From NCBI GenBank assembly GCA_017601225.1, contig JAFNIX010000002.1, positions 52,903 to 116,902 on the forward strand: DNA of 64,000 nucleotides, written 5' to 3'. A model generated the notes under the pieces. That model worked only from the letters and a program-made list of their open reading frames with translations. It was not told where the DNA came from and did not search any database. Positions within the stretch are counted from its first letter, which is position 1; each line of letters begins with the position of its first letter. This DNA is from Candidatus Brockarchaeota archaeon. Lineage in GTDB: Archaea > Thermoproteota > EX4484-205 > JAAOZP01. Positions 7,968 to 59,685 of this stretch are shown here, piece after piece. The position numbers and the translations under genes are program-made.

Positions 7968-9143
7968 GTGGGGGGAAAGCCTTCGTTCAAAAACATAGCA
8001 ACGTCGACCCAAATACTGCTGGCTCTAATTATAATGCTGCCGATAGTCGTAAGCCTATGGTTAGTTCTCACATATCCCCCCAGCTTTTTCAAACTGCTTC
8101 CCGGAATTGGGGAGGACGGAGCAATACCGATCATGGTGGGAGAAGAAACATTTGAAACATTGATTGTTAAAATCCACTATCCTTCTGAAATAGCTAGGAT
8201 AATGGAGAATAGGATATGGAGCGAGGCCAGAGGGAACCGTTTGACTGTAAAAATAGGGGGATGCCTCAGGATAGTGTGGCACGACGATATGGTCATAGTG
8301 GGTATGATTAATAGTACGGAACATGTTTTTAACATAAGGGAGCTGAGGAGAAGACTAGAGCAACTAAAACTGTCTGTAAACAACACTTCTGTAGAGGCAA
8401 TGATCAATGTTTTAAACCTATCCTACCCGAGGCTGAGGAACCTGCCTGAAGACTTTAAGAATATGGTTTTCACGATCTTAGAGAACCAGTCTTTCATCAG
8501 ATGGCTTAGGGAGGAAGGCTTAACCTACAGTGTTGAAAGGGCCAGACTATGGGGAGCATTAGGAGGCGCACACGCGCTAACTTCGAATGTGGTGGAAATA
8601 GAACTGCTGGTTGAGGGGATTGAAGCATCGTGCAGCCTAATCCTTAATAAAACCTATAAGGTGGTTTCTAACTCTAATGCATCTAGGGAACTGCAAGTAG
8701 CGCTTGGGGAGAGCAACAAGACTAATGGAATTTGTATATACATTTACAAATATGATGATGGATTTATAGTGGGCACAATAGTGGAATTCAAAAACCCGTA
8801 TGACCCAGGATATACTCACAGCATGGGCGAAGCATGGCTAAAGAACAGCTCGTCAAACATTTGGACTTCACCAAGTACATATGTAAGGGTTTCGATTATT
8901 AACGCGACGAGTGAGCTGGGGCAGAGAATCATGCAGATATTAAGCAGCAACAGGCTTACGGGCAGGCTTATAGAATACGGATTCGAGGTAGACCTGGTCA
9001 TGACGGAGGAATATCTTTTCGATGAAACAAGCCGATACTTCAACACATATTTTTACTATGCAGGAAAAGAAGTGGAATTGAATGTGAATATTAATCCGGA
9101 TGCTGGAAGGATTGAGAAAATATCTTTCATTGCCCGAGAATAA
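7968..9143 (+). CDS. Hypothetical membrane-anchored/secreted protein (391 aa)
   Basis: N-terminal hydrophobic helix (ILLALIIMLPIVVSLWLVLTY) and several N-x-S/T sequons. No recognisable family. GTG start as given by the ORF track. Confidence 0.55.
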   Translation: MGGKPSFKNIATSTQILLALIIMLPIVVSLWLVLTYPPSFFKLLPGIGEDGAIPIMVGEETFETLIVKIHYPSEIARIMENRIWSEARGNRLTVKIGGCLRIVWHDDMVIVGMINSTEHVFNIRELRRRLEQLKLSVNNTSVEAMINVLNLSYPRLRNLPEDFKNMVFTILENQSFIRWLREEGLTYSVERARLWGALGGAHALTSNVVEIELLVEGIEASCSLILNKTYKVVSNSNASRELQVALGESNKTNGICIYIYKYDDGFIVGTIVEFKNPYDPGYTHSMGEAWLKNSSSNIWTSPSTYVRVSIINATSELGQRIMQILSSNRLTGRLIEYGFEVDLVMTEEYLFDETSRYFNTYFYYAGKEVELNVNINPDAGRIEKISFIARE

Positions 9144-25197: not shown

Positions 25198-26068
25198 CCC
25201 AGCCTTAGAATGCATAGATGTTTCTAAAACCTATATCATGGGTAGAGACATAGAGGTGAAGGCTTTAAGAAATGTTTCGCTAACAATACGGAGGGGGGAT
25301 TTCGTTTCTATCGTCGGGCCCTCTGGCTCTGGGAAGTCTACACTGCTCCATATAGCTGGAACCTTGGATAAGCCTACTTCCGGAAGGGTTCTGGTTGACG
25401 GCGTGGACGTGACTAAGCTCAGCGAGAACGAGCTGGCCGTCTTCCGGAAGAACAAGATAGGGTTCGTCTTCCAGTTCTTCAACCTTCTCAGAAACCTTTC
25501 AGCCTTGGAGAACGTGACACTCCCGATGCTTCTTTCGAAAAGATACACCTTGAAAGAGGCCAGGTTGAAGGCTCTTTACTTGTTGAGGCTGGTAGGCTTC
25601 CCCGAAGACAGGTTGAGAAACCCTCCGAGCAGGCTTAGCGGAGGCCAGCAGCAGAAAGTGGCTATTGCGAGAGCCCTGGCTAACAATCCTGCCTACATAC
25701 TTGCAGACGAGCCTACTGGCAACCTAGACGTCGCTTCATCGACAGAAATAGTATCGACCTTCAAGCTGCTGAACAGTTTTGGAAACACGATTATAATTGT
25801 GACCCATAACGTGGAGCTGGCCCGGGTTACTAATAGGATACTGTTTATGAAGGATGGTCAAGTTTTCGAGGAAGCACCTAGAAGCTTTCTGGAAGGCGTC
25901 CCGATGGATGATGAGACGATAAGGCTGAAGAAGCAGGTTCAACTAGACCTTTTAAAACTGGAGAGGGAGAATGTTGAAAGGCTTTTCAAAAACAGGGTTA
26001 TATCGGGGGAAACCTATGAAAGAGCTTTAAAATCCATAGATGAGAAGGAGATGATAGTGAAGCAATGA
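25190..26068 (+). CDS. ABC transporter ATP-binding protein (MacB/LolD-like) with ~65-aa coiled-coil C-terminal extension
   Basis: Walker A GPSGSGKST, signature LSGGQQQKVAIARAL, Walker B ILADEPTGNLD. It overlaps the permease gene by 8 nt. Confidence 0.9.
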   Translation: MSSPALECIDVSKTYIMGRDIEVKALRNVSLTIRRGDFVSIVGPSGSGKSTLLHIAGTLDKPTSGRVLVDGVDVTKLSENELAVFRKNKIGFVFQFFNLLRNLSALENVTLPMLLSKRYTLKEARLKALYLLRLVGFPEDRLRNPPSRLSGGQQQKVAIARALANNPAYILADEPTGNLDVASSTEIVSTFKLLNSFGNTIIIVTHNVELARVTNRILFMKDGQVFEEAPRSFLEGVPMDDETIRLKKQVQLDLLKLERENVERLFKNRVISGETYERALKSIDEKEMIVKQ

Positions 26069-28269
26069 GGCGCGCCCAAGCCCTCCTCCTAATACTAGTG
26101 GTGATGCTGCCCTCGGTGACCCCGGTTTCCCCGGAGGAAACCCTGGTCACTGTGAGTGAAACCCTCACCTATTTTCTAGATCTAAACCCGTTGACCGGGA
26201 ATTCGACAACGGAATTCAAATCCACCTTGACGGTTAAAAACACGGGGGAGTCAAGCGTCCAGCACCGTTTCATTCAAAGGCTATTCGGGGTTGATGCTTC
26301 AAACCTAGCATTACCCTCGGAGGCACGTCTAATACGGTTTTCAGGAGACGCCTGCATAATCGAATGGGTTGTTAATGCTAATCCGGGTACACGAGTCTTC
26401 GAGGTTAGCGGCAAGCCTCTTCGGCTTCCGCTCACTGTTGAAGCAAGCCTAAGGGTAAACGGAGCGGTGCCAAACTATACTTCAGCATACGGAGTGTTCT
26501 TCGTAAAATCCAGAGAGGGTGATTCGGTGGAATGGGTGATAAGGGTTAAGAATAATAATCCTGTTCTCCTAGACCCGTTGACAAACGCTTCTTCAAAACC
26601 CCCATTATTCGTCTCAATAACGATGAGTATTCCACAAAAATATTTTAGGAATATTGTTTTCAACCCTCCTGTAAACATGACTAATCCTCTCGAGAAGGAT
26701 TCGGTTTCATGGATACTCATACTTAGGGGAGAGGCGGAGATCAGGGTGGAAGCGCTTGTAGACGGGTTTGACGATTGGGGAACCATCCCGTTGACCACAG
26801 TATCGATCTCATCCTCCCCGATGGGAGAGTCCGTTAGAGAATCTATACTTTCACAGTTGAAAGGGCTGAACATGTCTATAAGCATGATGAACATGATTTT
26901 GACACCCATAGGAAACCTTACTGGTTTCACGAGCCTGATGAACAGAATGCTTGGAAACCTGAGCTACGGCTTGGAGACAACCGGTAATCAAACAATTATG
27001 ATCGGCGAGGCGTTGAAAGCAATAGGCTTCGGACTCAGCTCGGCAGCATCCCAGCTTTCCCAGGCGGCTTCGCTACTATCAGTGATCGCTGAAAACGTTT
27101 CCAAGGTGGATTTCAACAGGCTTAAGAAAGGGTTGAACTCCTCTCGAGAGGCGGCTGGCTTAATCCTAAACGAAACCTATAGGATGATTGTCGACGCGAA
27201 ACAGGGCCTCTTGGAGATTAACAATACTTTAACGGCGCTCAGAAACAATTTGACTAACCCTGACCAGATAAGCCTTTTGGAAAACGCTATCCGGAGGATA
27301 AACAGTCTGTACAGCCGTTTAAGCCTGGTTGAAAGCTATTTCGAATCAGCCGGGCCTCAACTTGACTACCTGTTCGAGAGCCTAGAATCCTTCGTAAACA
27401 TGCTGGAGGAATATGGCTCCAGCATCGTGAAGATGAGCTCAGGCCTAAACCTAGGCCTCTCAGCCCTGTACCAAACATCCTCAGCACTATCCGAGATGGG
27501 ATCAGCGTTGAAGCTTATCGGCGAGGCCAACATGATGATGGGAAGCAATCTGACCAGCGTTATCCCGATGCTTGAAACCGCCTCCTCTGGCTTAGAGAGT
27601 ATTCAAAAAAGCCTAAGCGAGAACATGACGTCCCTGGTTAAGGTTTACGACGAGCTGAGCCTGATCCTCAGGCTGATAGAGTATAGTGAATCCAGAACTA
27701 GACTTCTTGCTCCAGAAAAACTAAACGGGGCGAATATTGTTTTTGAACCAGAGCTTGTTGAAGAAGACTTTCTAACTTTAAACAGGCTTGTTTTAATGAA
27801 CGAAACCAGGATTGGGGTTAGACGTGTCGAGGTCGGTTACAACGGTAGTTTCGAGGGAGTTGTTTTAAACGGCTCCAGGTGCTCCGCAAACCTTAGCCTA
27901 ATTGGGATACTTGTTTCAGGAAACAGCGTAGTCATAGAACCTTTCAGGTTTTACGACGAAGGCAATATTCTAACGCTCTGGAACGGGCAGGAAGTTAAAC
28001 TACTCTTCTCTAAAGGCTCTGAGATAAGGATTAAAGTAGACTATTCTACGGCAAGCAGTCTTGGCGAGAGAAGCGAAGCATTAAGCTACTCTATAGTCCA
28101 GCCGACCTTCGGAAAAGGCATCGCTATAACAGTGAAGCCGGGTGAGACAAAGCCTCCTCTTAAAACAGGTTTAAACATTATTGCGATAGCACTATCTGTT
28201 TTAAGCATAATCATAACGATACTGCTCTTATACAGGCTTCGGAAAAGGGGGGAAGTAATAGTATCCTGA
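26065..28269 (+). CDS. Large secreted, C-terminally anchored surface protein with helical repeat core
   Basis: Signal-like N-terminus (LLLILVVMLPSVTPVSP), numerous N-x-S/T sequons, and a central Leu/Gly-rich helical repeat region. C-terminal TM (IIAIALSVLSIIITILLLY) plus RLRKR. The ATGA overlap with the ATPase gene implies co-translation. Confidence 0.65.
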   Translation: MRRAQALLLILVVMLPSVTPVSPEETLVTVSETLTYFLDLNPLTGNSTTEFKSTLTVKNTGESSVQHRFIQRLFGVDASNLALPSEARLIRFSGDACIIEWVVNANPGTRVFEVSGKPLRLPLTVEASLRVNGAVPNYTSAYGVFFVKSREGDSVEWVIRVKNNNPVLLDPLTNASSKPPLFVSITMSIPQKYFRNIVFNPPVNMTNPLEKDSVSWILILRGEAEIRVEALVDGFDDWGTIPLTTVSISSSPMGESVRESILSQLKGLNMSISMMNMILTPIGNLTGFTSLMNRMLGNLSYGLETTGNQTIMIGEALKAIGFGLSSAASQLSQAASLLSVIAENVSKVDFNRLKKGLNSSREAAGLILNETYRMIVDAKQGLLEINNTLTALRNNLTNPDQISLLENAIRRINSLYSRLSLVESYFESAGPQLDYLFESLESFVNMLEEYGSSIVKMSSGLNLGLSALYQTSSALSEMGSALKLIGEANMMMGSNLTSVIPMLETASSGLESIQKSLSENMTSLVKVYDELSLILRLIEYSESRTRLLAPEKLNGANIVFEPELVEEDFLTLNRLVLMNETRIGVRRVEVGYNGSFEGVVLNGSRCSANLSLIGILVSGNSVVIEPFRFYDEGNILTLWNGQEVKLLFSKGSEIRIKVDYSTASSLGERSEALSYSIVQPTFGKGIAITVKPGETKPPLKTGLNIIAIALSVLSIIITILLLYRLRKRGEVIVS

Positions 28270-46432: not shown

Positions 46433-47200
46433 TCTTTAACCCGATCCTTCTATACTGGCTTAACTACTTAAACCTTTCAAATGAAGACCTTTTATTACAG
46501 TTGAACTAGATGTAGGAAGATAATTTAAGAAAATAGGCATGATAAGAATCACCATATCTAGAGAGCCAAGAATCCCTTAGAAATTGTTCTTTATGATTTC
46601 TTTAAAAGGAAGACTCTCCGGAGTCTTCTTCGGCATGCTCGTCTTCCATCACAAGACTAGGAAAAACATACTTTGGGTTTATCATTACTCCAGCACTAAT
46701 CATATACGCCTTTGTCCTCCTAGTTTTAACACGAACCTGAAGAAATTGCGTAAATCAGTCATATCAATAGTTCATAAAGGGTAGTGTGTGCTTGCTTTGA
46801 AAACTAAAAGGGCAGGCGGTAGGATTCAGAGCTAAGCTTGTAAGCCTGACGCGGTTTCTGTTAAGGGAACGCCACTAGGATTGGTAGCAATATCGTCAAG
46901 ACAGTTAGGAAGTAGAGTTAGATTTTAGATAAAGACAATATTACAAGAAATTGTTCTCCTATTGACGAGAGGTGTAACACTCTGTAAGAGGACTGTTTTC
47001 TCCTTTTTAAGAATGCTATCGTTACAACTATGACGAGTAGGATTACCATGGTTATTGCTCCCACGGTAGTCAGGTTAGTTTCAGCCTTCCAAGCTGCTGT
47101 TAGACTAAGTGGCCCCGTTACGCGCGCACTCTTATTCTTCCTTATAGTAGGAACACATTAGAAGAAGCAAGGTTATGATATCAGGCGTTTTCAGAAAAAC

Positions 47201-47208
47201 TTTATCTA
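47201..47208 (+). promoter_or_regulatory. TATA-like box TTTATCTA upstream of the 489-aa/2379-aa operon
   Basis: It lies 28-35 nt upstream of the ATG at 47236, which would imply a leaderless or very short-leader transcript. Confidence 0.3.
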
Positions 47209-47235
47209 AAACCTCTGCCTTTCCTATCTAAAAAT

Positions 47236-48705
47236 ATGGTTAAACGCTCTTGGCTGGGGGGCCTGCTTGTTTTACTTTTCACAGTAATGCTCGCTTTGCT
47301 TTCGACTAGTTTAAATTCTCCACTACGCGGCCCCTTGGTCTCAGCAGCTCCATCGTCCTACTTTTGGAGCAGCCTAAGCAGGAATACGGTGGCGGTAACC
47401 TATTCTGTTGACGAGAGGACATGGTACGGTGGAACAGACTATCTACACGTTAAGGCTAGTGGACAAGGCGTGTACGGCGACACCAAGACAGCTATAGCGA
47501 CAGTAACAATACCCGCTGGTTTCTCGGCAGGAATCTATGTTTGCGGCGACGATCGTAACCCTGTTCCCAACGGATGGACTGTTCAGGAGAAGTATCTAAG
47601 GCTAGAGGTTGACGGGGTCAGGGTCTACGAGCTGGGTAAAGAATACTGGTGGGCGAAATGCTACTCTAAGGCTGCAACCCTATGCTCAGGTACGCACGAG
47701 GTTAAGCTGACAATAGGCATCACGGTTAAGGTTTCCTCAAACTTTGAGGAACGCGACCTGCATTGGGCTTCGATGGACATAAGGCTTGAGGGAAGCGGAA
47801 CGATAACGGCTGAATCCCATACCGCTGAGGCGACCCTAGATGGGAGTGTAACGCACGTCTTCACTTTCATGCTTCCCCAGGCATCTGGCGTGAGAAACAT
47901 GAGTTGGACGGCTAGGTGGAACGGGCTTGAGGAAACTGGCTGCGGAGTCCCGGGAAGCATGCAGAAAGCAGTGTTCTCAGGGGTTAACAGGGGCAGCTGG
48001 GTTTTCACAAGCCCGGTCGTAATCAGGGTTGGCGAGTCTGTCCCGTTGGTAAGCGTTGGAGACGGTTACGCTATCGACGCTGTCTACGATGAGGGCTCGG
48101 GGGAAACTGGAATCCGTAGGATCGCTGTAGCCATTAGTAATGGTGACGAGGCAGGGTTTACCTCAGCAAGATATCTCGTAACCGAGATTAAGCGTGAAAC
48201 AAGGGTCGTGGGTGGGACACTGATAGGCTCCGCAATATGGGCGAACAGCGGTTCAACCATCGTGTTCAACCAGACTGTAAGCTACTATGCTTCAAACGGC
48301 TGGGTTACTGAGAGGATTAGGGGAGGTGTTGAAACAGGCTCAGGCGTAGTGAAGGCTTTCCAAGAGCTTAATGTTTCTAGAAAAGTTGGTTTCTCCTCGA
48401 AGAACAGGAATGATGAGCTCGAACTGACGGTAAGGATTCCTCTGCTAACCATGGTTTTCACCCACATCGTAGTCTCAGCTGAGAGGAACGGTGACAATGT
48501 TAATGTTAGGGCCTTCTGGGCCCACGATAACAGCCCCATAGCAGGGTTAAGGGTAAAGTGTTTCGAAACAGACCAGAGCGGAGTAACCGATCTGAACGGC
48601 AGGGTCTCGTTCAGAATAGCCGGCTCAGGATTCGAAGCAACCATCTACCCCTCTGAAGGAAGAAACGGGATAACCGTTTACGAGAAGGCGAGGGTAAGGC
48701 TATGA
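47236..48705 (+). CDS. Secreted beta-rich protein (489 aa) with C-terminal CarboxypepD_reg-like domain
   Basis: Signal-like N-terminus (LGGLLVLLFTVMLALLSTS). C-terminal IAGLRVKCFETDQSGVTDLNGRVSFRIAGSGFEATIYP resembles the prealbumin-like carboxypeptidase-regulatory fold motif. The stop overlaps the next start (ATGA). Confidence 0.6.
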   Translation: MVKRSWLGGLLVLLFTVMLALLSTSLNSPLRGPLVSAAPSSYFWSSLSRNTVAVTYSVDERTWYGGTDYLHVKASGQGVYGDTKTAIATVTIPAGFSAGIYVCGDDRNPVPNGWTVQEKYLRLEVDGVRVYELGKEYWWAKCYSKAATLCSGTHEVKLTIGITVKVSSNFEERDLHWASMDIRLEGSGTITAESHTAEATLDGSVTHVFTFMLPQASGVRNMSWTARWNGLEETGCGVPGSMQKAVFSGVNRGSWVFTSPVVIRVGESVPLVSVGDGYAIDAVYDEGSGETGIRRIAVAISNGDEAGFTSARYLVTEIKRETRVVGGTLIGSAIWANSGSTIVFNQTVSYYASNGWVTERIRGGVETGSGVVKAFQELNVSRKVGFSSKNRNDELELTVRIPLLTMVFTHIVVSAERNGDNVNVRAFWAHDNSPIAGLRVKCFETDQSGVTDLNGRVSFRIAGSGFEATIYPSEGRNGITVYEKARVRL

Positions 48706-51700
48706 GCAAACATAATAGGCTTAGCGGTTTCTTAAACCTTGCGAAGGCTTGGCCGATATGTCTGGTTAACGCTGCGACAGCATACTTCACGATAGTCGGC
48801 TTGCTTCTCCTCTTAACACCCGATATCGCTGAGCTAATAGTCAACGGCGTTCCAACGAGTAGGCTGATTCTAACCACGGCTGTTGCATTCGTTTTCCTTA
48901 ATATGCTTCTCGTGTTAACCTACGCTGCATCACTCTTCACCGTTAAGCGTGAGAGCATGATGGATGGCTTTAGGAGGAATGGCGGAAGGCTGATCAAGGG
49001 GCTCCTGCTTCTCTCGCTCTCCAGCCTTATCTGCCTAGCCTTAATCGTCTTCGCCGGCTATAGTGCTGTTTCCCCGGCAAGCCTTTCCCAGGACGCGTTT
49101 AAACTTCTAGCGATGAACTATGGAGCAGGATTAGCAGTCTCGATCCTACATGCTCTTCCACTGGTCTGGCTGGTGAAATCTTTAGCAGGCGAAAAAATAC
49201 GGATGGGGCTGGGCAGGTTCCTCTCCCTGGTGGTGTTGGTCTTCCTGATGCTCGTTGCCCTCTCATCATACGGTTTCCTGGGGCTGTTCACAGACTCCGT
49301 GCTTATTCCAACGGCTGTAAGCCTCATTGTTCATGCTGGCTGGGGGAAGGCTGAGGACAGGGGGAGCAGTCTCTCCCGGCTTAAGAGGAGGAGCACGGGG
49401 AGGGCGGTGATTGGAATCATTCTAAGCATGCTTGTTCTAAGCACCGGAACCCCTTTCAACAGCATCCTGCTCAGCCTGGGTGAGGAGTCGAGCTTCAGCG
49501 AAGACGGGTTGAAAAGCCTTGTCTCAAGGGCTGTTGCAGAAGGCTGGAGTAATGGGGAGCTTGCCTCAGCGATAAGAAGCAACCCGGGGCTAAGCATGCT
49601 TTCAACCTACGACCTTAGCAGCATAACTATTGAGAGGGATGATGCTGGAAGCGTCAAGGTTACAATACCGCTCACCGCCTCAGGCTACGGAATATATAGG
49701 AAAACAGGCAATAAGACCACGGTTTACGACGTTTACGCTCAAACCGGTTCAAGCGAGCTAGTTATAGGCGATAAGCGCTACGTCCTAGCCGGCTACAGGA
49801 GCAGCGGGGAAACCTACGGCCCGTTTGAAAACCTCGATGACGCGCTGGCCATGGAGAATGAGGCTAAGGCTTACGCTAACGCCACGAGGATCACTTCCAA
49901 CACTGTTCTGAAGACTGAGACCAGGGAGGCGGCAAGGGTTGAGACCAAGTACGCTGTCGTCCCAACAGTCAGGGTAGTGAAGTATGAGGTGCTGGGAGAG
50001 TTTGAAACCTATGAGGCTGCTCAAAGCTACCTCAGCCTCTACCCGGGACTTCTGTGGACAGCGGAGGTGAAGACTCTTGAGAAGCAGGTCTGGGTACACT
50101 CCTACAGGCTTGAATTCCTCGAGGAGACAACCAGCTATTACAGGGCTTTGATGATGAGCAGGGACGGCTATGTTGCGGAGGAGGTTAGGAGCCTTGTGAC
50201 TGTCTACGTTTTCGACAGGTGCAGCCCGCTCGGGAGGCTGATGGTCCTCGACAGGGTTGAGATCGCGAAGGAGGATTTCGAAAGAATGCTTCAAACAGGA
50301 GAGCTTGCGAGGAGTGTTGACGAGCATGGTGAAGAATACTACTATTACTCTTCGCAGGGGCCGTATTCAGCAAGGCTCTACAGGACTGGGGTGAAGCAGG
50401 TTGAAGGAAGCGTCGTAGCTTGGAGAATATACCGCAGGATCGACACTTCTCACTGGGAGACTAGGAGGACTTACCGGGTTGTTGCTCCAGACGGTTATGA
50501 GGAGGGGAAGGTTAGCATAGATGAGTTGCCGAGCTACGCGAAGGGCTTCCCGTCTAGGAGCGATGCTGCGGACTCTAAGAGTGTTGTTGAAAACATGCTT
50601 GGAAGCTGGGCTGACAGCCAAGGTGTGACTCTGAGGTTCTGCGAAGTGGAATCGTACGAGCAGAATGTTTCTGGGGTTGAAACCGTAACCAGGCAGGTTA
50701 AACAGTACTATGTTACTGCGACATTCCTGAAGCCTGTTTACGATGTTTACGAGCTTCAACCATACCACAGGGTTTGGAACGAGACGAGTTACGAGGAAAC
50801 ATGGGGCTGGGTTTTCAAAGGCTATGTTGACGAGAAGCCTGAGAACTATGATGCGTCGACATGGGTTTACTCGCCTGAGGTGGTGAACTGGACTTCTAAG
50901 ACGTACTTGGGAATATTCACCGAGTGGGAAACGCAGGTATTAATGAGCGCTGACCCGCGCTACGTCGCTGAGAAGCATAACACCACGACGATAACTAGGG
51001 AAGTATCTTACTACGATGTTTACAACGCAACCTGGAAACTGTTATACCACTACTACAAGTATGTTGTCCACCCCACTCATGAATATATCGCTAACGGGAA
51101 CATTTCCACCGGCGGAGGATGGGCCTTCGAAAACTTGGGTGACGCTAACGGAGAAGTATGCTCCTCAGCCTTTCGCAGTAGCCCGAATAGTTTGAGAATA
51201 GTTTCTGGGAGTGGAAGAGGGGCCTGGAGGCAAACATTCTACTATGACGCCGGGGGCTCAAGCCCAGTGTTAGACTTCTGGTATGTTTTAAGGGGGAGTG
51301 GAGCCGTTGCGGTGAAGAAGCCAGATGGCTCAGCACAAGTCTTCACCCTAGGAGAAAACAGTGGTTGGACTAGGTTCAACAGGGATTCTGGTGATGTCTT
51401 CAGTCAAGCGGGATACTACACGATATCCTTCGTAGCTTCTGAGAACAGCGAGCTCCTTGTTGACGATGTTAGCCTACATGTAGGCGGCTACGGTGAATGG
51501 GTCTACCAGGGTGATGTTGAAAACAGGCCTGAAAACGTTCCTTCCAACGAGAAGTATGAAGCCTCCTATAAAATTGAGAACAAGAGGCTCATAGGAACCT
51601 TCGACGAGAGCGTTGCAAACCAGTATCCCACCCCGCCCTACATAAAGGAGTTTAAAAAGAAGGAGACTGTTAGCTATACTGTAGACCTCTACAAGCTATA

Positions 51701-54700
51701 CTACTTGGAGGGCGGGTTCGTCAAGTATAAGGTTTTCCATTGGGAGAAGCAGCAGGTTCCAATAGTTGTTAGGAAGGAGGAGTCCGGGGCAAAATGGGTC
51801 TTGGTTGAGAGCGGTGTGGAAACAGGATTCGGCGGGCTAATGCTGGTTGAGCAGAACGTGCCGGAGGACGTTGTTAAAGCGAAGTATAATGATCCTGTGA
51901 AATACCTTCTTGTCCCCAAGGTTGTTGAAGCCGGGGAGGCTCTTGAGCTTGTGTGCGAAACCCTCGATGGGAGTCTTGCGAGAAAATACGAGAAAGAGGG
52001 CTACATAGTCAGAAACACCGAGGTCTCAACCGGAAACCCGATAAGGTTCAGCGTGAGAATGCTTCAAGCAACCGTTGAGAAGAATGAGATGGGTATGCTT
52101 GGCAAGCAGAACACTTTGAGAGTCGCCATAGCTAACCCGACTCAGGATACTCTGGCCTACCAGGTTACCATAGAGGCGGAGAACAACGAGATTGTTGAGG
52201 AAATGCTCCCAGAGGGACAGGCTTTCCACATGCCTGAGGCGGTCAGGAGGATCACCATGGTTCCGGTTGCCGAGCCCAGTAGCTGGCTCCTAGCTGTTCA
52301 GCCTGGTGGAGCGTCATACTCGCTGGAGTTCGCAACCTGGGTCAGGAGGACGGAGGAGAAGGAGTATGGTAGTTATAATGTGAACACTGCTTACTGGCCA
52401 ACCGGCTCAGTCGGATGCAGCTTCACGGTTAAAGTGTTGAGAAACGGGAGGCTGGTTGCTAAGCAACGGGTTCTGGAAACCTTCGACAGCTTCAACGTGG
52501 AAAGAGCAGTGGCGAGACACCCGTTTGAGACAGTGGGCGGGTTCCTAATGGGCTTCGGGGCGATGGCGGCGATAACAGCCTTATCCTTCTCCCTGCCCCA
52601 GGTCACCATAGGTTTAGCAGGCCTGTCCCTCACCATGTCTCCCTTCACCTTAGTGGGGCTCGCGGCCGGCACCGCCAGCGCCCTAATAGTCTACGCTCAA
52701 ACCGGGAGCGGTGTTGAAGCCTTAACGTACAGCCCGCTTGGAGTATTCGTCGCACCCGTAAGGGCCTTGGCGGACCCTACTATGGATGATAGTAGGAGAG
52801 CGTCGATAATAGGCGCGGTGATAGGTGCTCCACTCGGCGTCCTCGTGGGCCAGAGGATAGCTCTGGATGTCGCGATGCTAAGGATGCCTAGCGAGCTCAG
52901 GAATGATCCTAAGGTCTACGGCTTCCTATACGCGGCTGAGAAGAACTATGGCACGGCTTTCGCCTCAACCGTAGCCGGATACATTGGGAAGCTCTACCCT
53001 TATGCTGATGTCCCCGACGCCAAGGGCCTTGTAGCATTGCTTCTAAGCGACGCTTTGAAGAGCAGGCAGGACGCTTTCTACATCGCGAGCATGCTTGAAA
53101 AAGCCTCCGGCATGGGTGAAGAGTTTCTCAGTAGGCATGCAGGCAGCGTGATGGAGTGGCTCGGAAGCCCACTGCTGAGATACAAGCTTGCCTCCCTCCT
53201 CCAGCTGAGCCCGGATGAGGCCCTCCAGATCTCCCAGAGCGTTGGGGGAGACTTCGTGCAAATGATTCGCCTCGCGGAGTTCAAGCATGCTTGGAACCAG
53301 CTTTCCAAGCTCGGCCCAGACACGGTTAGAGTGTTAAGCTGGAGCCCGGACGGGATAGAGGTGGGGGTTGAGAAGAGCCTCGCAGGCCAGCTCTACCCGG
53401 GTATTCAGAAGGGCAGCGTCGTGGAGTTCGAGTTCGCGAGGGGGAGCATTGTCCTCAAAGGATTCTTGACATACGCGGAGGAAAAAGCCCTTGGAGACTC
53501 TAAGTACCTCGTCTTCGCGTTCAAGGCTGAGGAAAGAATCCCATATGTTTTCGACCTCCTTAGGGAGGACATGCAGGCAATACCCGGGCAGCAGGCTGAG
53601 AAAACATTCGGCTTCAACGCTTTCAACCCTTCAAAAGGGAAGCTCACTCTAGACAAGGGTAGCCTGAGCGTAGACGGGAGCGTGAGGTTTAGCGACGGAA
53701 TGGTTCTCAAAATGGATGACCCCGGGGTCATGCTTGTCCCCAGCGAAAACCCGTTGGAAACCGGGACGCTTAACGAGGTGCTTCTGCAGGGGAGGATAAG
53801 CGGGACCAGCGTGGTTGTTGATGAAGATGGGGTGGTTAAAGCGTTCCACCAAGGAGATTATCTGCCCGCTGTCGTCACGGCGAGCACACTGGGGCTCCAG
53901 CTTGGAATACTTGCGAAGCCGAGCGGTGGAGTATTGACAATCCCTGGGGAAAGCCTTAGGGCGAGAGGCATTCTTGACCCAAGCTTGGTGCATGTTGTCT
54001 ACCCGGATGGGGCGGCGGTGACAACCCTGTACACGGGTGGAAGCCTCCAGATACCTTTACACTCATACTTCTCCGGGGCTTTCCTAGGGGTTCAGGCGGT
54101 TGAAACAAGGGTTGTCTGGACTGAAACAATGGGGCGGAGGGAGTTCTACGCTCAGGTTGCCAGCACCAGCGAAATAATCGGGAATGCTCTCGGAAGAGGC
54201 TTTTCAGAGGAGTTCGTGGAGACATTGCTGCTGAGCGGGCTCACGGATTCTCAGGCGTTGGACATGGCTAACGAGCTTGTTAGGAACATTGAGTGGCTTA
54301 AAGCGTTCAGCAGCAGTAGGAGGATTGAGGCTGTCAGGAGGATAACGGAGTACGTTGTGAAGGGGGAGACCGCTGAGGAGGCTGTTGAAAAAGTCAGGAG
54401 GGAGAGCGAGGAGTATGTTAGAAACCTTGAGCTTGAGACGATAGAGTTCTACAACTCCATCCCCGACACCATGCTTGCGAACGAGGTTCTAAGCCTGATA
54501 AAACATATTCAGGAGAGGCTTGGGCCTGAGGCTGCGAGATGGCTCCTGGAGGTTTTGAAGAGGACATATGTGGAAACCCTTGCCTCAACCCTTGGCGATA
54601 GGGAGGCTGCGGACAATAGGCTTAGAAGCGTCGTCGAAAAAGCGTTCAAGTATCCTGAGAGCGTAACCCAAGGATGCGCACTATCCTCAGCAGTAGTCGT

Positions 54701-55841
54701 TGAACTGATGGAGAAGAGTGTTGAGGAAGCGTGGGAGACGCTTAACAGACTGGTCAATTATCCTGATGGCTTAAGAGTAAAATGCGTCTTAAAACCACAC
54801 GAAGATCGTTTCACAATACATATACCAGAAGAACAATTAGCTTCGTACTTAGGCAGTGAAGCCTGCTGGATAAGAATGGAGGTTAAAGGAACAGTTCTGT
54901 ACAAGAAGTATAACCCAACTTTCAATTTCGATGTTCCGCCAGGGCTCGGTGAAGCTGGCGAGGAAATAGAAATAACCATTAGGAAAATCACTCCCTACGA
55001 GTTTATCAGGACAGCAATCACGGAAGGAAGAATGCCCTTCGACATAGAATTCTCACTCGAAAGATACTGGCTCGTCGTAGGAGATGGAAAGATAGAAACA
55101 TCCTTAAAGCAAGGTATGTATTACGACAGGGGAGACAAGGGGCCTGCAGTAGTCTTCATGATAAAAGACTGGCAGGGAGAGGAGCATGAGCTTAAACTAG
55201 TCTACAATTGGGATAGGAAATATTTATCCAAGATAATGATCGAGGACTTCAGACAGATCCAGGACGCAGAATACGATTCCGAAACCGGAATACTTACAAT
55301 AACATACTTGAAAGGCGACCATGCATCGGAACACCTGATATACTTAGAGAACCCAAAATCCGTTTTAACAAGGATGGTTGAAAAATTAAAAATCACCCTT
55401 AGCGAAGAACGCGAAGACACAAACCTTGAGGGAGACATCGGTGAGTATTATATAATGCTCTATAAGAGTGATGTAATCAAAGAAAAAGTATCTGAGATTC
55501 TGGGGGTTCCAAAGGACAAGATCAAGGTCGTCAAGGGTTATTCGAATTGGGGGCCGGACTTCTACGTTTACTGCGAAGGTAAGCTAGTGGCGATAATTGA
55601 TGTAAAAACTACTACGAAATCTAAGTATTATCCGGCGGAGAAACTGAAAGAGGCTAAAGATAGTCTGGAGAATAAATACTTCACTCGAGATGAATGGAAA
55701 GATCTCTTCAAAAAGGTCAAGTATGGGATTCCAATAGCAGTCTTTCTTAAGAACCTAGATGAAATAATTCAGACAGAGTTTTTGAGTGGGATAGATTGTA
55801 AGCTAGGGGAAGTGGTTGAAAATCCGAATTACGAGCCTTAG
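48702..55841 (+). CDS. Giant polytopic membrane protein (2379 aa) with CBM-like module and C-terminal PD-(D/E)XK nuclease-like module
   Basis: Uninterrupted 7.1-kb ORF. About 6-7 TM helices lie in residues 1-260, then a ~1000-aa hydrophilic region. That region includes a jelly-roll/CBM-like segment (residues ~798-927) and is followed by a second TM cluster (residues ~1278-1385). A ~1000-aa C-terminal region ends with E...GPD(x13)DVK. Confidence 0.8.
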   Translation: MSKHNRLSGFLNLAKAWPICLVNAATAYFTIVGLLLLLTPDIAELIVNGVPTSRLILTTAVAFVFLNMLLVLTYAASLFTVKRESMMDGFRRNGGRLIKGLLLLSLSSLICLALIVFAGYSAVSPASLSQDAFKLLAMNYGAGLAVSILHALPLVWLVKSLAGEKIRMGLGRFLSLVVLVFLMLVALSSYGFLGLFTDSVLIPTAVSLIVHAGWGKAEDRGSSLSRLKRRSTGRAVIGIILSMLVLSTGTPFNSILLSLGEESSFSEDGLKSLVSRAVAEGWSNGELASAIRSNPGLSMLSTYDLSSITIERDDAGSVKVTIPLTASGYGIYRKTGNKTTVYDVYAQTGSSELVIGDKRYVLAGYRSSGETYGPFENLDDALAMENEAKAYANATRITSNTVLKTETREAARVETKYAVVPTVRVVKYEVLGEFETYEAAQSYLSLYPGLLWTAEVKTLEKQVWVHSYRLEFLEETTSYYRALMMSRDGYVAEEVRSLVTVYVFDRCSPLGRLMVLDRVEIAKEDFERMLQTGELARSVDEHGEEYYYYSSQGPYSARLYRTGVKQVEGSVVAWRIYRRIDTSHWETRRTYRVVAPDGYEEGKVSIDELPSYAKGFPSRSDAADSKSVVENMLGSWADSQGVTLRFCEVESYEQNVSGVETVTRQVKQYYVTATFLKPVYDVYELQPYHRVWNETSYEETWGWVFKGYVDEKPENYDASTWVYSPEVVNWTSKTYLGIFTEWETQVLMSADPRYVAEKHNTTTITREVSYYDVYNATWKLLYHYYKYVVHPTHEYIANGNISTGGGWAFENLGDANGEVCSSAFRSSPNSLRIVSGSGRGAWRQTFYYDAGGSSPVLDFWYVLRGSGAVAVKKPDGSAQVFTLGENSGWTRFNRDSGDVFSQAGYYTISFVASENSELLVDDVSLHVGGYGEWVYQGDVENRPENVPSNEKYEASYKIENKRLIGTFDESVANQYPTPPYIKEFKKKETVSYTVDLYKLYYLEGGFVKYKVFHWEKQQVPIVVRKEESGAKWVLVESGVETGFGGLMLVEQNVPEDVVKAKYNDPVKYLLVPKVVEAGEALELVCETLDGSLARKYEKEGYIVRNTEVSTGNPIRFSVRMLQATVEKNEMGMLGKQNTLRVAIANPTQDTLAYQVTIEAENNEIVEEMLPEGQAFHMPEAVRRITMVPVAEPSSWLLAVQPGGASYSLEFATWVRRTEEKEYGSYNVNTAYWPTGSVGCSFTVKVLRNGRLVAKQRVLETFDSFNVERAVARHPFETVGGFLMGFGAMAAITALSFSLPQVTIGLAGLSLTMSPFTLVGLAAGTASALIVYAQTGSGVEALTYSPLGVFVAPVRALADPTMDDSRRASIIGAVIGAPLGVLVGQRIALDVAMLRMPSELRNDPKVYGFLYAAEKNYGTAFASTVAGYIGKLYPYADVPDAKGLVALLLSDALKSRQDAFYIASMLEKASGMGEEFLSRHAGSVMEWLGSPLLRYKLASLLQLSPDEALQISQSVGGDFVQMIRLAEFKHAWNQLSKLGPDTVRVLSWSPDGIEVGVEKSLAGQLYPGIQKGSVVEFEFARGSIVLKGFLTYAEEKALGDSKYLVFAFKAEERIPYVFDLLREDMQAIPGQQAEKTFGFNAFNPSKGKLTLDKGSLSVDGSVRFSDGMVLKMDDPGVMLVPSENPLETGTLNEVLLQGRISGTSVVVDEDGVVKAFHQGDYLPAVVTASTLGLQLGILAKPSGGVLTIPGESLRARGILDPSLVHVVYPDGAAVTTLYTGGSLQIPLHSYFSGAFLGVQAVETRVVWTETMGRREFYAQVASTSEIIGNALGRGFSEEFVETLLLSGLTDSQALDMANELVRNIEWLKAFSSSRRIEAVRRITEYVVKGETAEEAVEKVRRESEEYVRNLELETIEFYNSIPDTMLANEVLSLIKHIQERLGPEAARWLLEVLKRTYVETLASTLGDREAADNRLRSVVEKAFKYPESVTQGCALSSAVVVELMEKSVEEAWETLNRLVNYPDGLRVKCVLKPHEDRFTIHIPEEQLASYLGSEACWIRMEVKGTVLYKKYNPTFNFDVPPGLGEAGEEIEITIRKITPYEFIRTAITEGRMPFDIEFSLERYWLVVGDGKIETSLKQGMYYDRGDKGPAVVFMIKDWQGEEHELKLVYNWDRKYLSKIMIEDFRQIQDAEYDSETGILTITYLKGDHASEHLIYLENPKSVLTRMVEKLKITLSEEREDTNLEGDIGEYYIMLYKSDVIKEKVSEILGVPKDKIKVVKGYSNWGPDFYVYCEGKLVAIIDVKTTTKSKYYPAEKLKEAKDSLENKYFTRDEWKDLFKKVKYGIPIAVFLKNLDEIIQTEFLSGIDCKLGEVVENPNYEP

Positions 55842-56648: not shown

Positions 56649-56649
56649 G

Positions 56650-56797
56650 TGGTAGCCCGGGAGAGATTCGAACTCTCGTCAACGGGTTTCTTCTCCAGCG
56701 GATCCAGAGCCCGCCATCCCTAGTCGGGATGTAAGCCTTACCTCCCATTGACCGCTGCCCTTAGCGCTTTTTCGCGTCTAATCTAGACGACCGGGCT
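56650..56797 (-). tRNA. tRNA-Gln (anticodon CUG) with about 70 nt of intervening sequence, probably 2-3 introns, and encoded CCA
   Basis: Minus strand: perfect 7-bp acceptor stem AGCCCGG/CCGGGCT with A1-U72, discriminator A and CCA. T-arm is GAGAG-TTCGAAT-CTCTC. Candidate anticodon arm is GCGGG-CTCTGGA-TCCGC (U33, CUG). Total length is 148 nt versus about 75-78 nt for a mature tRNA. Confidence 0.75.
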
Positions 56798-56943: not shown

Positions 56944-59685
56944 ATGTCCGGCGAGAAGGAGGATGCTTTTCACGCTCTTGAGGTTCGGGAAGTGTTTGAG
57001 AGGCTTGGGTCTAGTGTTAGGGGTTTGAGCAGCCGCGAGGCTGAGAGGAGGCTTAGGGAGTATGGTCCCAACGAGCTGGAAGAGGAGGAGAAGACTAGTG
57101 TTCTGACTCTTGTTTTCAACCAGGTGAGAAGCCCCATAATAATGGTTTTGTTCGCCGCGATACTTATTTCTCTTGCTATCGGTAAAGTGGTTGACGCTGC
57201 TGTTATAGGCGTGGTTATAGCTTTCAACACTGTTATAGGTTTCACGCAGGAGTTTAAGGCTGAGAAGGCTCTTCAGGCTTTGAAAAGGCTTGCGGCGCCG
57301 GAGGCAGAGGTGGTTCGAGACTGTCCCGAGTCGGGTGGCTGCGTGGGAATGCGGGTTAAGGCTAGGGAGATTGTTCCCGGGGACGTGATCCTCCTGGAGG
57401 CTGGTGACAGGGTGCCTGCTGACGCTCGGATATTTGAGGCCTTTAACCTGGAGATAGATGAGTCTATGCTTACAGGCGAGTCGACACCGGTTGGGAAAAC
57501 AACCGAGCCTCTTGAGAAGGATCTTCCAGTGGCGGAGCGTAGGAATATTGCTTTCGCCGGGACGATTGTGACCAAGGGGAGGGGTAGGGCTGTCGTGTTC
57601 GCCACAGGGGTTAGGACGGAGATTGGAAAAATAGCGCGTCTAATTAGGGAGACTGAGAAGATTGAAACGCCTATTCAGAAGCGAACGTCTGATCTTTCGA
57701 AGAAACTCGGTGTTCTCGCCTTGTCTTCGAGCAGCCTGATGGTTATAGTTGGTGTTTTACGGGGCTTCGAGTTTTTCGAAATGTTTCTGTTCGCGCTTGC
57801 AGCCGCTGTTTCCGCTATTCCTGAGGGGCTTCCCGTAGTGATTACGGTGACGCTCGCCATCGGGGTTAACAGGATGGCTAGGCGTAATGCTATAATCAGG
57901 AGGCTTCAGGCTGTTGACACTCTCGGCTCAGTTACAGCCATATGTACAGACAAGACTGGAACGCTTACGACAAACCAGATGACGGTTCAAGAGGTCTTCG
58001 TATCCGGGAGGACGGTGAAGGTCACTGGGTCAGGCTTCACCCCTGAGGGACGGTTCGTGCTTGAGGAGGAGCCGGTTGACCCGCTGGGTTTCGAGCCTCT
58101 TAAGCTTCTCCTTCAAGCCGGCGCTCTCTGTAACGATGCTCGTTTAATACAGCATGAGGTTGACGGCGGGTTCAGGTGGGAGGTTCACGGCGACCCGACT
58201 GAGGGTGCTCTCGTTGTTGCCGCAGCCAAGGCTGGTTTGCGAAAGGAGGAGCTTGAGGAGCTTTATCCGCGTATAGACGAGATTCCGTTCGACCCTCAGG
58301 AGAGATACATGGCCACGTTCCACAAGGCTCCTTCAGGAGTTTTGACGGTTTACGCTAAGGGTGCGCCTAAAACAATACTTGAAATCTGCTCGGAATACTT
58401 GGAGGACGGTGAGAGGAAAAAGCTGTCTGAGGAGAAAAAGGAGGAGGTTCTAGAGGTTTCTCGGAGCATGGCGGGTAGGGCTCTGAGGGTTCTTGCAGTA
58501 GCATTCTTGGAGATTAGCGACGGGGAGTTGAAAAGGGTGAAGGCTAATATTCGCGTCGAACCCAGAATGGTGTTCATCGGCTTAGTCGGGATGATGGATC
58601 CACCGAGGCCTGAGGCGAAAACTGCTGTTCAGCTTTGCAAGAGAGCAGGCATTAAGGTCCTTATGTTGACGGGGGACCATAGGCTTACGGCTCAGGCTAT
58701 TGCGAGCGAGCTTGGGATCCTGAAACCCGGCTCAAAAGTGCTGACGGGTGTGGAGCTCGACCAGATGGGTGACGGGGAGCTGGATGCTGTGGTTGAGGAT
58801 GTGGCGGTGTTCGCAAGGGTTTCACCCCTGCATAAGCATAGGATTGTCCAGTCTTTGAGGCGCAGGGGCCACGTGGTGGCTATGACTGGAGACGGTGTTA
58901 ACGATGCTCCGGCTTTAAAAACGGCTGAGGTTGGCATCGCGATGGGAATAACTGGGACTGACGTTACGAAGGAGACTGCCGACATGGTTTTGGTTGACGA
59001 TAATTTCGCCAGCATTGTTAACGCGGTGGAGGAGGGCAGGGTGGTCTTTGAAAATATTAGGAAGGTTGTGAAGTACTTGGTCTCCACAAACCTTGGGGAA
59101 ATAATAACGATATTTGCCGCCCTTTTTCTCCTGCCTGATGCACCCGTCCTTTTCACCCCTGTTCAAATACTCTGGGTTAACCTTGTCACCGACGGGCTTC
59201 TCACCGTTACTCTAGCTATGGAGCCCAAGGAGGAGGACGTTATGGATCAGCCTCCCAGGAAGCCGGGGGAGAAGATAATTAACAGGGACATTCTGCTCAA
59301 CACTATCTACGTTTCAACATTCATGGCTATAGGGTCTCTCTGGATTTTTACGAGAGAGTGGGTCAACGGAGATTTGACTAGGGCACGGGCCATGACTTTC
59401 ACCGTTATGGCGATGTTCCAAGTCTTTAACGCGTTTAACTGCCGATCCAGAACGAAGTCTGTTTTCAAAATAGGTTTTTTCACGAACAAGTATCTTTTCG
59501 CAGGCGTAGCTTCCTCAGTCTCCCTACAGGTGTTGGCAACGATACTGCCCTTCTTCCAAGCGGCTCTTCAAACAAAACCGCTTTCACCATGGGATTGGGC
59601 AACCATAATTCTTGTTTCGAGCAGCGTGTTTATTGCGGACGAGGTCAGAAAACTCGTTAGAGCCAAGTTGAAAAAAGCTGGCTAA
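56944..59685 (+). CDS. P2-type cation-transporting ATPase (Ca2+/SERCA-PMR1-like)
   Basis: N-terminal cation-ATPase domain (LSSREAERRLREYGPNEL), TGES, TM4 IPEGLP, phosphorylation site CTDKTGTLT, and hinge TGDGVNDAPAL. Confidence 0.9.
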   Translation: MSGEKEDAFHALEVREVFERLGSSVRGLSSREAERRLREYGPNELEEEEKTSVLTLVFNQVRSPIIMVLFAAILISLAIGKVVDAAVIGVVIAFNTVIGFTQEFKAEKALQALKRLAAPEAEVVRDCPESGGCVGMRVKAREIVPGDVILLEAGDRVPADARIFEAFNLEIDESMLTGESTPVGKTTEPLEKDLPVAERRNIAFAGTIVTKGRGRAVVFATGVRTEIGKIARLIRETEKIETPIQKRTSDLSKKLGVLALSSSSLMVIVGVLRGFEFFEMFLFALAAAVSAIPEGLPVVITVTLAIGVNRMARRNAIIRRLQAVDTLGSVTAICTDKTGTLTTNQMTVQEVFVSGRTVKVTGSGFTPEGRFVLEEEPVDPLGFEPLKLLLQAGALCNDARLIQHEVDGGFRWEVHGDPTEGALVVAAAKAGLRKEELEELYPRIDEIPFDPQERYMATFHKAPSGVLTVYAKGAPKTILEICSEYLEDGERKKLSEEKKEEVLEVSRSMAGRALRVLAVAFLEISDGELKRVKANIRVEPRMVFIGLVGMMDPPRPEAKTAVQLCKRAGIKVLMLTGDHRLTAQAIASELGILKPGSKVLTGVELDQMGDGELDAVVEDVAVFARVSPLHKHRIVQSLRRRGHVVAMTGDGVNDAPALKTAEVGIAMGITGTDVTKETADMVLVDDNFASIVNAVEEGRVVFENIRKVVKYLVSTNLGEIITIFAALFLLPDAPVLFTPVQILWVNLVTDGLLTVTLAMEPKEEDVMDQPPRKPGEKIINRDILLNTIYVSTFMAIGSLWIFTREWVNGDLTRARAMTFTVMAMFQVFNAFNCRSRTKSVFKIGFFTNKYLFAGVASSVSLQVLATILPFFQAALQTKPLSPWDWATIILVSSSVFIADEVRKLVRAKLKKAG

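Follow-up and report, generated by a model that had tools for sequence, protein, structure and literature searches.

Bacterial polymorphic toxins such as CdiA/CdiI, Rhs, LXG and MafB consist of a large conserved N-terminal part and, beyond a sharp breakpoint, a variable C-terminal nuclease cassette; a cognate gene adjoins the cassette, orphan pairs lie nearby and several loci occur per genome. Ankyrin-repeat immunity proteins and toxins of the restriction-endonuclease (REase) fold are established in these systems (PMC3482391). In archaea, polymorphic toxin systems have only been predicted, none having been characterised experimentally (PMC8416519), and DNase and RNase tails are the commonest toxin moieties according to Makarova et al. 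(2019, as cited in PMC8416519). In the VARTIG module of Thermococcales, Ig domains are present but a toxin cannot be recognised (Makarova et al. 2021, PMC8416519). Here we describe a locus of three genes, termed A, B and C1, in a 64,000-nucleotide stretch of contig JAFNIX010000002.1 from a Candidatus Brockarchaeota archaeon (the window), and interpret it, with about even confidence, as a polymorphic nuclease toxin-immunity module on a new polytopic scaffold, probably serving conflict between cells. It is read in this way because a conserved scaffold meets a hypervariable nuclease tail at a sharp breakpoint, the neighbouring gene co-varies with the tail, and orphan cassettes and multiple loci per genome are found.

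The A-B-C1 locus shares with the bacterial systems the whole of the organisation outlined above, including an ankyrin-repeat protein among the adjoining cognate partners. It differs from them in having no elements of type V, VI or VII secretion systems (T5SS, T6SS, T7SS), no Sec-dependent delivery elements and none of the RHS, FHA, PT-HINT or PrsW kind; moreover, its scaffold, a polytopic membrane protein, has about ten helices and is without a detectable relative beyond a single archaeal clade, its cassettes have a single fold, its partners form the new families C1 and C2, C1 is convergent and the tail is predicted to be cytoplasmic. With the predicted archaeal systems and VARTIG it has in common a large surface protein whose hypervariable C-terminus is reshuffled through recombination, and downstream genes that vary (PMC8416519). 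In contrast to VARTIG, B has a nuclease as its tail and an unrelated, polytopic scaffold, and it comes from hot-spring Thermoproteota/Brockarchaeota. Compared with the 2019 archaeal toxin catalogue as cited in PMC8416519, what appears to be new is the scaffold, the nuclease family, which belongs to the PD-(D/E)xK clan, and a pair of candidate immunity families.

Gene A (47236-48705, +) encodes a beta-rich protein of 489 residues that is secreted or N-terminally anchored, its translated open reading frame (ORF) having a hydrophobic N-terminus (residues 4-30 in a Kyte-Doolittle scan) that constitutes a signal or anchor. It is joined to gene B (48702-55841, +), which encodes a polytopic giant protein of 2379 residues, by the letters ATGA at 48702-48705 (+), in which the start codon of B and the stop codon of A can be read directly. 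No ORF in the window is larger than B, the runners-up having 942 and 913 residues, and the product of B leads from about 6-7 N-terminal transmembrane segments through a hydrophilic stretch rich in Tyr and Trp and a second hydrophobic cluster to a further ~990 residues ending in a nuclease-like motif. A preliminary description of this DNA had been right on the two genes, their overlap and this layout, and its statement that no described archaeal system shows this combination fits the outcome of the library searches, all of which were negative: A, B and C1 gave nothing significant in scans against Pfam, NCBIfam, PADLOC and PHROG and no meaningful sequence or profile match in the PDB, and none of the 16 members of the B family carries a Pfam or NCBIfam domain. 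It had missed the cassette nature of the tail, the existence of stand-alone pairs and the third gene, C1 (55849-56577, -), which encodes a cytoplasmic protein of 242 residues and is convergent with B, the stop codons of the two genes lying 7 nt apart.

Residues 1-2005 of B are conserved within the family, whereas windowed identity and C-terminal (CT) clusters divide the last ~370 residues into at least five unrelated-looking types. The cassette of the window, assigned to type 1, comprises residues 2006-2379 (54717-55838, +), and its start coincides with a collapse of identity and with a fall in guanine-cytosine content from 0.55-0.58 at 52.2-54.2 kb to 0.38-0.45 at 54.6-56.0 kb, a loss of 10-15 points (roughly 0.56 to 0.42), the content remaining low on through C1. 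The position of the breakpoint is directly after the conserved motif FKYPES..GC.L.S..V.EL, with which a helical 'handle' (residues ~1815-2005; 54144-54716, +) ends. The handle is common to B and the stand-alone cassettes described below, P0017 and L4_split both starting here. How abruptly identity changes is apparent from pairs of homologs: P0003 and P0004 are 88.4% identical before residue ~2005 (100% over 1614-1810) and 24.8% after it, and identity between P0013 and P0014 falls from 85.5% to 22.9%. In P0004 and P0011 the tail is more alike than the scaffold, with 73.8% identity before and 80.0% after the same point. From these comparisons we infer that the tail of B is a cassette exchanged across a sharp recombination breakpoint.

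The genes downstream of the cassette change with the cassette type. All six type-1 cassettes (in the window and in L001, L003, L010, L011 and L024) are accompanied by a convergent C1 gene of 225-258 residues, whose stop codon abuts or overlaps that of B across the type-1 loci; at L031, where layout alone was compared, a convergent gene of 246 residues occupies the place of C1. All other cassette types are followed by a co-oriented gene of the C2 family (191-232 residues), frequently with a 4-nt overlap. C2 proteins are very diverse, and the one at L007 is fused to eight ankyrin repeats. Within C1, subfamilies track those of the cassettes. A seeming exception to this pairing, the combination of a non-type-1 tail with C1 at L004, was resolved, the same tail type and C1 subfamily recurring together in two pairs at L029. 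C1 and C2 are treated as unrelated families because hhalign gave a probability of 1% for their homology, which was rejected; neither has a match in the libraries or among PDB profiles. C1 can thus be regarded as a putative immunity protein, or inhibitor, cognate to the type-1 cassette, and inhibition of the respective cassettes by C1 or C2 is suggested by the gene arrangement. The C1 family is large: it forms 112 clusters, reaches six or more copies in certain metagenome-assembled genomes (MAGs) and far outnumbers B. At L001 (17149-18498, -) two C1 copies are fused in tandem into a protein of 449 residues, similar to the proteins P0057 and P0058 of 443-448 residues. One source labels the C1 homolog P0078 as belonging to the cultured Infirmifilum uzonense; the sole contig retrieved for it is a Kamchatka MAG (L030). 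If this assignment is correct, a cultivable host may exist.

Cassettes also occur apart from full-length B genes. At L001, a fragment of 252 residues that is 98.7% identical to the tail of P0004 lies beside the type-1 full-length gene; the gene for its matching ankyrin protein comes next and overlaps it by 4 nt. L002, L016 and L020 have pieces of the variable region and extra C2-like genes downstream, and L024 contains a degraded pair of tail and C1 at a distance of 8 kb. Stand-alone proteins of 550-610 residues, each convergent with a C1 gene, are present at L010, L029 and L030; such proteins start at about residue 1815 of B or carry an unrelated N-terminus. The L029 contig (15.9 kb, Candidatus Brockarchaeota GD2_1) has three C1 genes among housekeeping genes; the cassette-type ORFs that face them, one each, in convergent orientation have 612, 132 (a remnant) and 553 residues, the 612-residue protein having an unrelated N-terminus rich in Glu and Lys. 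In the rest of the window, no other family members or orphan cassettes were found.

The family to which B belongs is small. Sixteen close homologs were recovered, and an HMMER search with a profile of residues 830-2005 against 1.84 billion representatives returned 40 proteins, all of them members or fragments of the B family, many of the representatives beginning at profile positions 900-1060. Scanning one genome per GTDB species yielded 18 B loci in about 10 MAGs, with 2-3 loci per genome. These MAGs are labelled as Thermoproteota, 'Nitrososphaerota/Thaumarchaeota' and Candidatus Brockarchaeota, and several of the isolate names point to hot springs as the source of the samples. A viral origin was considered and rejected, no relative of B or C1 having been found among the viral contigs of IMG/VR.

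The motif at the end of the tail, GPD(2286)FYVY...AIID(2300)VK(2302), corresponds to the signature of PD-(D/E)xK nucleases, so that the nuclease-like motif reported earlier is real. Its residues are D2286 (55557-55559, +), D2300 (55599-55601, +) and K2302 (55605-55607, +), and the nuclease core as delimited by motif, alignment and AlphaFold2 (AF2) model extends over 55419-55751 (+). D...(D/E)xK is kept in almost all complete tails. In an alignment of 17 diverse cassettes, which are 15-50% identical to that of the window, D and K are invariant and an acidic residue precedes K in at least 90% of the sequences. The AF2 model of residues ~2219-2379, with a predicted local distance difference test score (pLDDT) of 80-90, has the order alpha-beta-beta-beta-alpha-beta. 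Helix 1 carries the candidate E2243 or E2248, D2286 lies where strand 2 begins, and strand 3 holds D2300-x-K2302. This core, with its E...D...(D/E)xK residues and often a Q after them, is also that of the effector domain of Card1/Can2, Cas4, SfsA, the N-terminal domain of HsdR, NERD, Shedu SduA and the Tox-REase families, from all of which the cassettes differ in that none of their matches reaches a family threshold. In comparison with the PDB, all matches of the domain profile were below threshold (best E = 0.036), and four of the eight top matches were PD-(D/E)xK nucleases aligned on the motif, namely Card1, a Cas4-like protein, SfsA and VRR-NUC. When the 17 domains were searched singly against Pfam, weak matches were obtained to HSDR_N (five members), PDDEXK_4 (four), SfsA (three) and NERD (two), as well as to PDDEXK_1/9/14, MmcB-like, UPF0102, Tox-REase-9 and SduA_C, the best value being 4e-4 for NERD in a single member. 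None of the Pfam models Tox-REase-1 to -10 exceeded its gathering score; one of the 17 cassettes matched Tox-REase-9 weakly (E = 0.077), and the window protein matched none of them. We nonetheless consider it highly probable that the tail has the PD-(D/E)xK (restriction-endonuclease) fold, which is taken as established because the motif is conserved, the AF2 core has the appropriate order and the weak matches are concentrated on this clan. By its sequence, the tail appears to be a new family within the clan, with a putative DNase activity.

A different view of the same domain would be that B is an adhesin or structural protein of the envelope, in which a degenerate nuclease-like tail mediates protein interaction only and the partners are binding proteins with no toxin-immunity relation. 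Some cassettes do lack the lysine (E-x-E), and the cassette of the window has no significant match of its own to any nuclease family in Pfam. The invariance of D and K and near-invariance of E/D in cassettes as diverged as those of the alignment, however, point to a retained active site, and the cassette also occurs without any surface part, which makes this view very improbable. Library and profile searches likewise placed B as a whole in no known S-layer or adhesin family, and with the nuclease-fold tail present, the proviso of the preliminary description that B might prove to be such a protein without an effector domain was not borne out.

The scaffold begins with an N-terminal bundle of about seven transmembrane helices (residues 18-257; 48753-49472, +), detected as 6-7 strong hydrophobic segments with Kyte-Doolittle scores of 1.7-2.6, the positively charged loops of which are predicted to be cytoplasmic by the positive-inside rule. 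It is followed by a predicted extracellular region (residues 258-1277; 49473-52532, +), characterised by windowed identity and N-X-S/T sequons. Tyr and Trp make up 9.5-14.5% of residues 401-1000, and residues 700-1100 are the best conserved part of B, with 75-90% identity. Sequons are enriched in the extracellular region, 81 being observed in ten homologs as against 53.9 expected, and five of them are conserved in all ten. Although the AF2 model of residues 258-1280 is poor (pLDDT 49), such that only local matches to folds resembling carbohydrate-binding modules (CBMs) were used, Foldseek aligned 105-135 residues of the middle part to CBM61, CBM16, CBM29 and the C-terminal domains of tailspikes (probability 1.0, E about 2e-3). 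A CBM-like beta-jelly-roll is thus probable, and may be placed at residues ~810-930 (51129-51491, +), the Foldseek output being without query positions; the candidate sequence closes with ...YYTISFVASENSELLVDDVSLH. Surface exposure of the middle part is supported by the conserved and enriched sequons together with the CBM-like matches. Two other ORFs of the window with hydrophobic segments, 7968-9143 (+) and 26065-28269 (+), are also rich in sequons (10 vs 3.5 and 19 vs 8.8 expected, respectively), and are probably surface glycoproteins unrelated to A-B-C1.

The second hydrophobic cluster (residues 1278-1388; 52533-52865, +) was recognised from the Kyte-Doolittle scan and invariant columns. 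Three Gly/Ala-rich segments are present where 3-4 transmembrane helices had been proposed, but all three are marginal, with scores of 1.62-1.72. The cluster also has the invariant loop ALTYSP..G..VAP.RALADPTMDD..R, and weak glycine-zipper matches were obtained in Pfam scans. Between this cluster and the breakpoint lies a conserved region (residues 1389-2005; 52866-54716, +), as seen from windowed identity, for which AF2 models a bundle of helices, then a beta-rich and finally a helical part. A second mosaic segment, residues ~1300-1700 (52600-53800), comes in two alternative forms across the family: in P0012, P0013, P0014 and P0016 identity to the window is 17-34% here and 45-80% on both flanks. 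Invariant alignment columns further define the motif GGSLQ.PL.SY.SGAF.G.QAVETR..WT (residues 1779-1807; 54036-54122, +), which sits just 5' of the starts of the stand-alone cassettes and is a candidate pre-toxin or processing motif. In the C-terminal half of B sequons are depleted (8 observed, 35 expected), as they are in 13 diverse cassettes (5 observed, 15.8 expected), while the non-membrane ORFs of the window, used as a control, hold 24 with 29.3 expected. Relative to composition, N-X-S/T is depleted about 3-4-fold in 52866-55838 and in the cassettes of 13 homologs. The depletion hints, if weakly, at possible contact between the tail and the glycosylation machinery at some stage.

With a nuclease tethered to a polytopic membrane protein that has a large surface domain, B could also be thought of as a machine for DNA uptake or exchange, analogous to ComEC, in which the two helix clusters would form a channel, the cytoplasmic nuclease would process incoming DNA and C1 or C2 would act as a regulator. 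A housekeeping nuclease of this kind is not expected to be a hypervariable, swapped cassette with matched partners and orphan copies, the family is limited to a narrow clade, and no ATPase, pilus or DNA-binding component is conserved beside B across the loci inspected. We therefore regard a role in DNA uptake as improbable.

In the toxin-immunity interpretation, the glycosylated and CBM-containing middle part of B would be displayed at the surface of the cell, with the secreted protein A as its probable companion there, and an exchangeable cassette ending in a PD-(D/E)xK DNase would make up the final ~370 residues. C1 would be the cytoplasmic inhibitor of the type-1 cassette, other cassette types being served by partners of the C2 family. 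Upon entry into the cytoplasm of neighbouring archaea without the matching immunity protein, the cassette would degrade their DNA, the outcome being kin discrimination and competition. Two routes of delivery can be envisaged. In the first, the C-terminal half would be translocated or exported under regulation and cleaved; candidate elements for this are the marginal glycine-zipper helices and the invariant motif at residues 1779-1807. In the second, membrane fusion or vesicle transfer would carry the membrane-tethered nuclease into the recipient with the topology of the tail unchanged, which would reconcile a cytoplasmic tail with action between cells. Both the action between cells and the route of delivery are inferred. 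Outer-membrane exchange by TraA/TraB in Myxococcus delivers the SitA polymorphic toxins, and offers a speculative and purely functional analogy, in that surface recognition, membrane merging and tethered toxins act on non-kin cells devoid of immunity; no relation in sequence or fold exists. We know of no route by which an organism with a single membrane and an S-layer delivers polymorphic toxins. A more far-reaching form of this idea, which we put forward tentatively and consider rather unlikely, is that B may be a self-contained archaeal machine for contact-dependent delivery, of a kind so far undescribed. With ~10 helices and a surface domain that recognises the glycans of a neighbour with the help of A, it would transfer its own nuclease cassette into the cytoplasm of that neighbour. 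The transfer would take place through fusion of membranes or exchange of vesicles, or else the cassette would pass through the glycine-zipper helices by self-translocation and be cleaved near residues 1779-1807.

Several observations weigh against a toxin-immunity module. No secretion, trafficking, repeat, autoprotease or pre-toxin domain typical of polymorphic toxins was found in the 16 family members with Pfam and NCBIfam, and all cassettes share one fold where classical systems employ many. The suggestion that the locus resembles a polymorphic-toxin weapon, made in the preliminary description for the case of an exported tail, is supported by the gene organisation (the breakpoint, the tail-matched partners and the orphan and stand-alone pairs), but known trafficking, repeat and processing domains are missing. 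C1 is convergent and not co-oriented, which is atypical of an immunity gene, and E-x-E replaces E-x-K in the cassettes P0012, P0026 and P0047. The AF2 models of B are of low to medium confidence, and Foldseek returned nothing at E <= 0.001 in the PDB for the model of residues 1270-2379, a multi-domain model with a pLDDT of 66.8. With three helices in the second cluster, the simplest predicted topology places the whole C-terminal half in the cytoplasm of the producer. Finally, stand-alone pairs of cassette and C1 without a membrane part outnumber B and resemble intracellular toxin-antitoxin modules.

The last two points favour the main rival explanation, in which B is a device for envelope-triggered abortive infection or defence, a reading that the preliminary description had offered for an extracellular middle part combined with a cytoplasmic tail. 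Its extracellular part would sense, together with A, the attachment of viruses or damage to the envelope, while the permanently cytoplasmic tail would be held inactive by C1 or C2 as an antitoxin until the trigger frees the nuclease to destroy viral and host DNA. The weak matches of some cassettes to the defence nucleases Card1, SduA_C and NERD and the location of several loci beside restriction-modification, GmrSD, PIN/MazE or ParE genes are in line with such a role. The stand-alone pairs further resemble type II toxin-antitoxin modules as two-gene combinations of nuclease and partner in many copies, and the idea of a membrane sensor with a nuclease effector is shared with membrane-anchored defence systems such as Zorya and Kiwa. 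Unlike in these systems, the cassette protein has 550-610 residues and is convergent with its partner, cassettes are swapped and orphan pairs occur, and none of the PADLOC-DB 2.0 defence models matches A, B or C1. Orphan pairs, and very recent swaps of cassettes between scaffolds sharing 85-100% identity, are what toxin-immunity weapons typically show and known defence systems do not. Also to be set against abortive infection are the several paralogs per genome with different tails, the many loci amid housekeeping genes and the depletion of sequons in the tail, which would not be expected of a purely cytoplasmic domain. We consider a function in abortive infection possible, though on the whole unlikely.

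That B is a genuine gene and no assembly artefact follows from a 98%-identical copy, P0001, in an independent assembly and from at least 10 collinear full-length homologs of like length (2332-2460 residues), which answers the proviso of the preliminary description that the ORF might be artefactual. The same 4-nt overlap of A and B is found in L001, L002, L006, L007 and L008. A homolog of A stands immediately 5' of B, mostly with a 4-nt overlap, in all loci that contain the 5' end of B, making A an obligate upstream partner with L004/L005 as the sole exception. In L004 and L005 (10001-17337), which come from two MAGs, B is divided into ORFs of 1764 and 627 residues about 110-160 nt apart and gene A is absent; the position of the split is the start position of the stand-alone cassettes, and the locus could be a two-part functional version or be decaying. 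B is also split in L011. Apart from these split copies, nothing was found in support of a chimeric or falsely fused ORF, and in view of the conserved overlap, the independent copy and the collinear homologs, the likelihood of an assembly or annotation artefact is negligible. Upstream of A, a stretch of ~800 nt (46440-47235) contains no ORF of at least 80 residues, and a TATA-like element, CTTTATCTAAAA, lies ~25-35 nt ahead of the ATG of A.

Outside A, B and the downstream gene, the flanks of the loci are not syntenic, ranging from tRNA synthetases to restriction-modification and toxin-antitoxin genes. The accessory context claimed for B holds in part: several loci adjoin restriction-modification or toxin-antitoxin genes, but flanks vary between genomes and are often housekeeping genes. 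In the window, the module is neighboured by a tRNA-like gene (56649-56796, -) with a ~61-nt intron and a long extra arm, which was missed by ARAGORN at default settings and by Rfam at the gathering threshold, these giving no RNA genes in the window; relaxed ARAGORN assigns it to tRNA-Gln(CTG), an identity that its long variable arm makes doubtful. A P-type cation ATPase adjoins the module in the window (56944-59685, +) and at L003 (5059-8061, -), on opposite sides, and is probably leftover synteny of close relatives with no functional link.

As a system for study, A-B-C1 is compact, consisting of three genes with one defined breakpoint, a mutable catalytic motif and two candidate immunity families, and natural swaps of cassettes between near-identical scaffolds add to its value. 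If B is indeed a delivery machine of its own, Thermoproteota would have in it their first weapon of kin discrimination that is open to mechanistic study. Should the tail be transferred between cells, the scaffold of B would represent a new principle of delivery; should it not be transferred, the family would be an abortive-infection device of a new, membrane-coupled type. In both cases, about 2000 conserved residues of wholly unknown fold, along with the families of A, C1 and C2, would become assignable to a conflict system.

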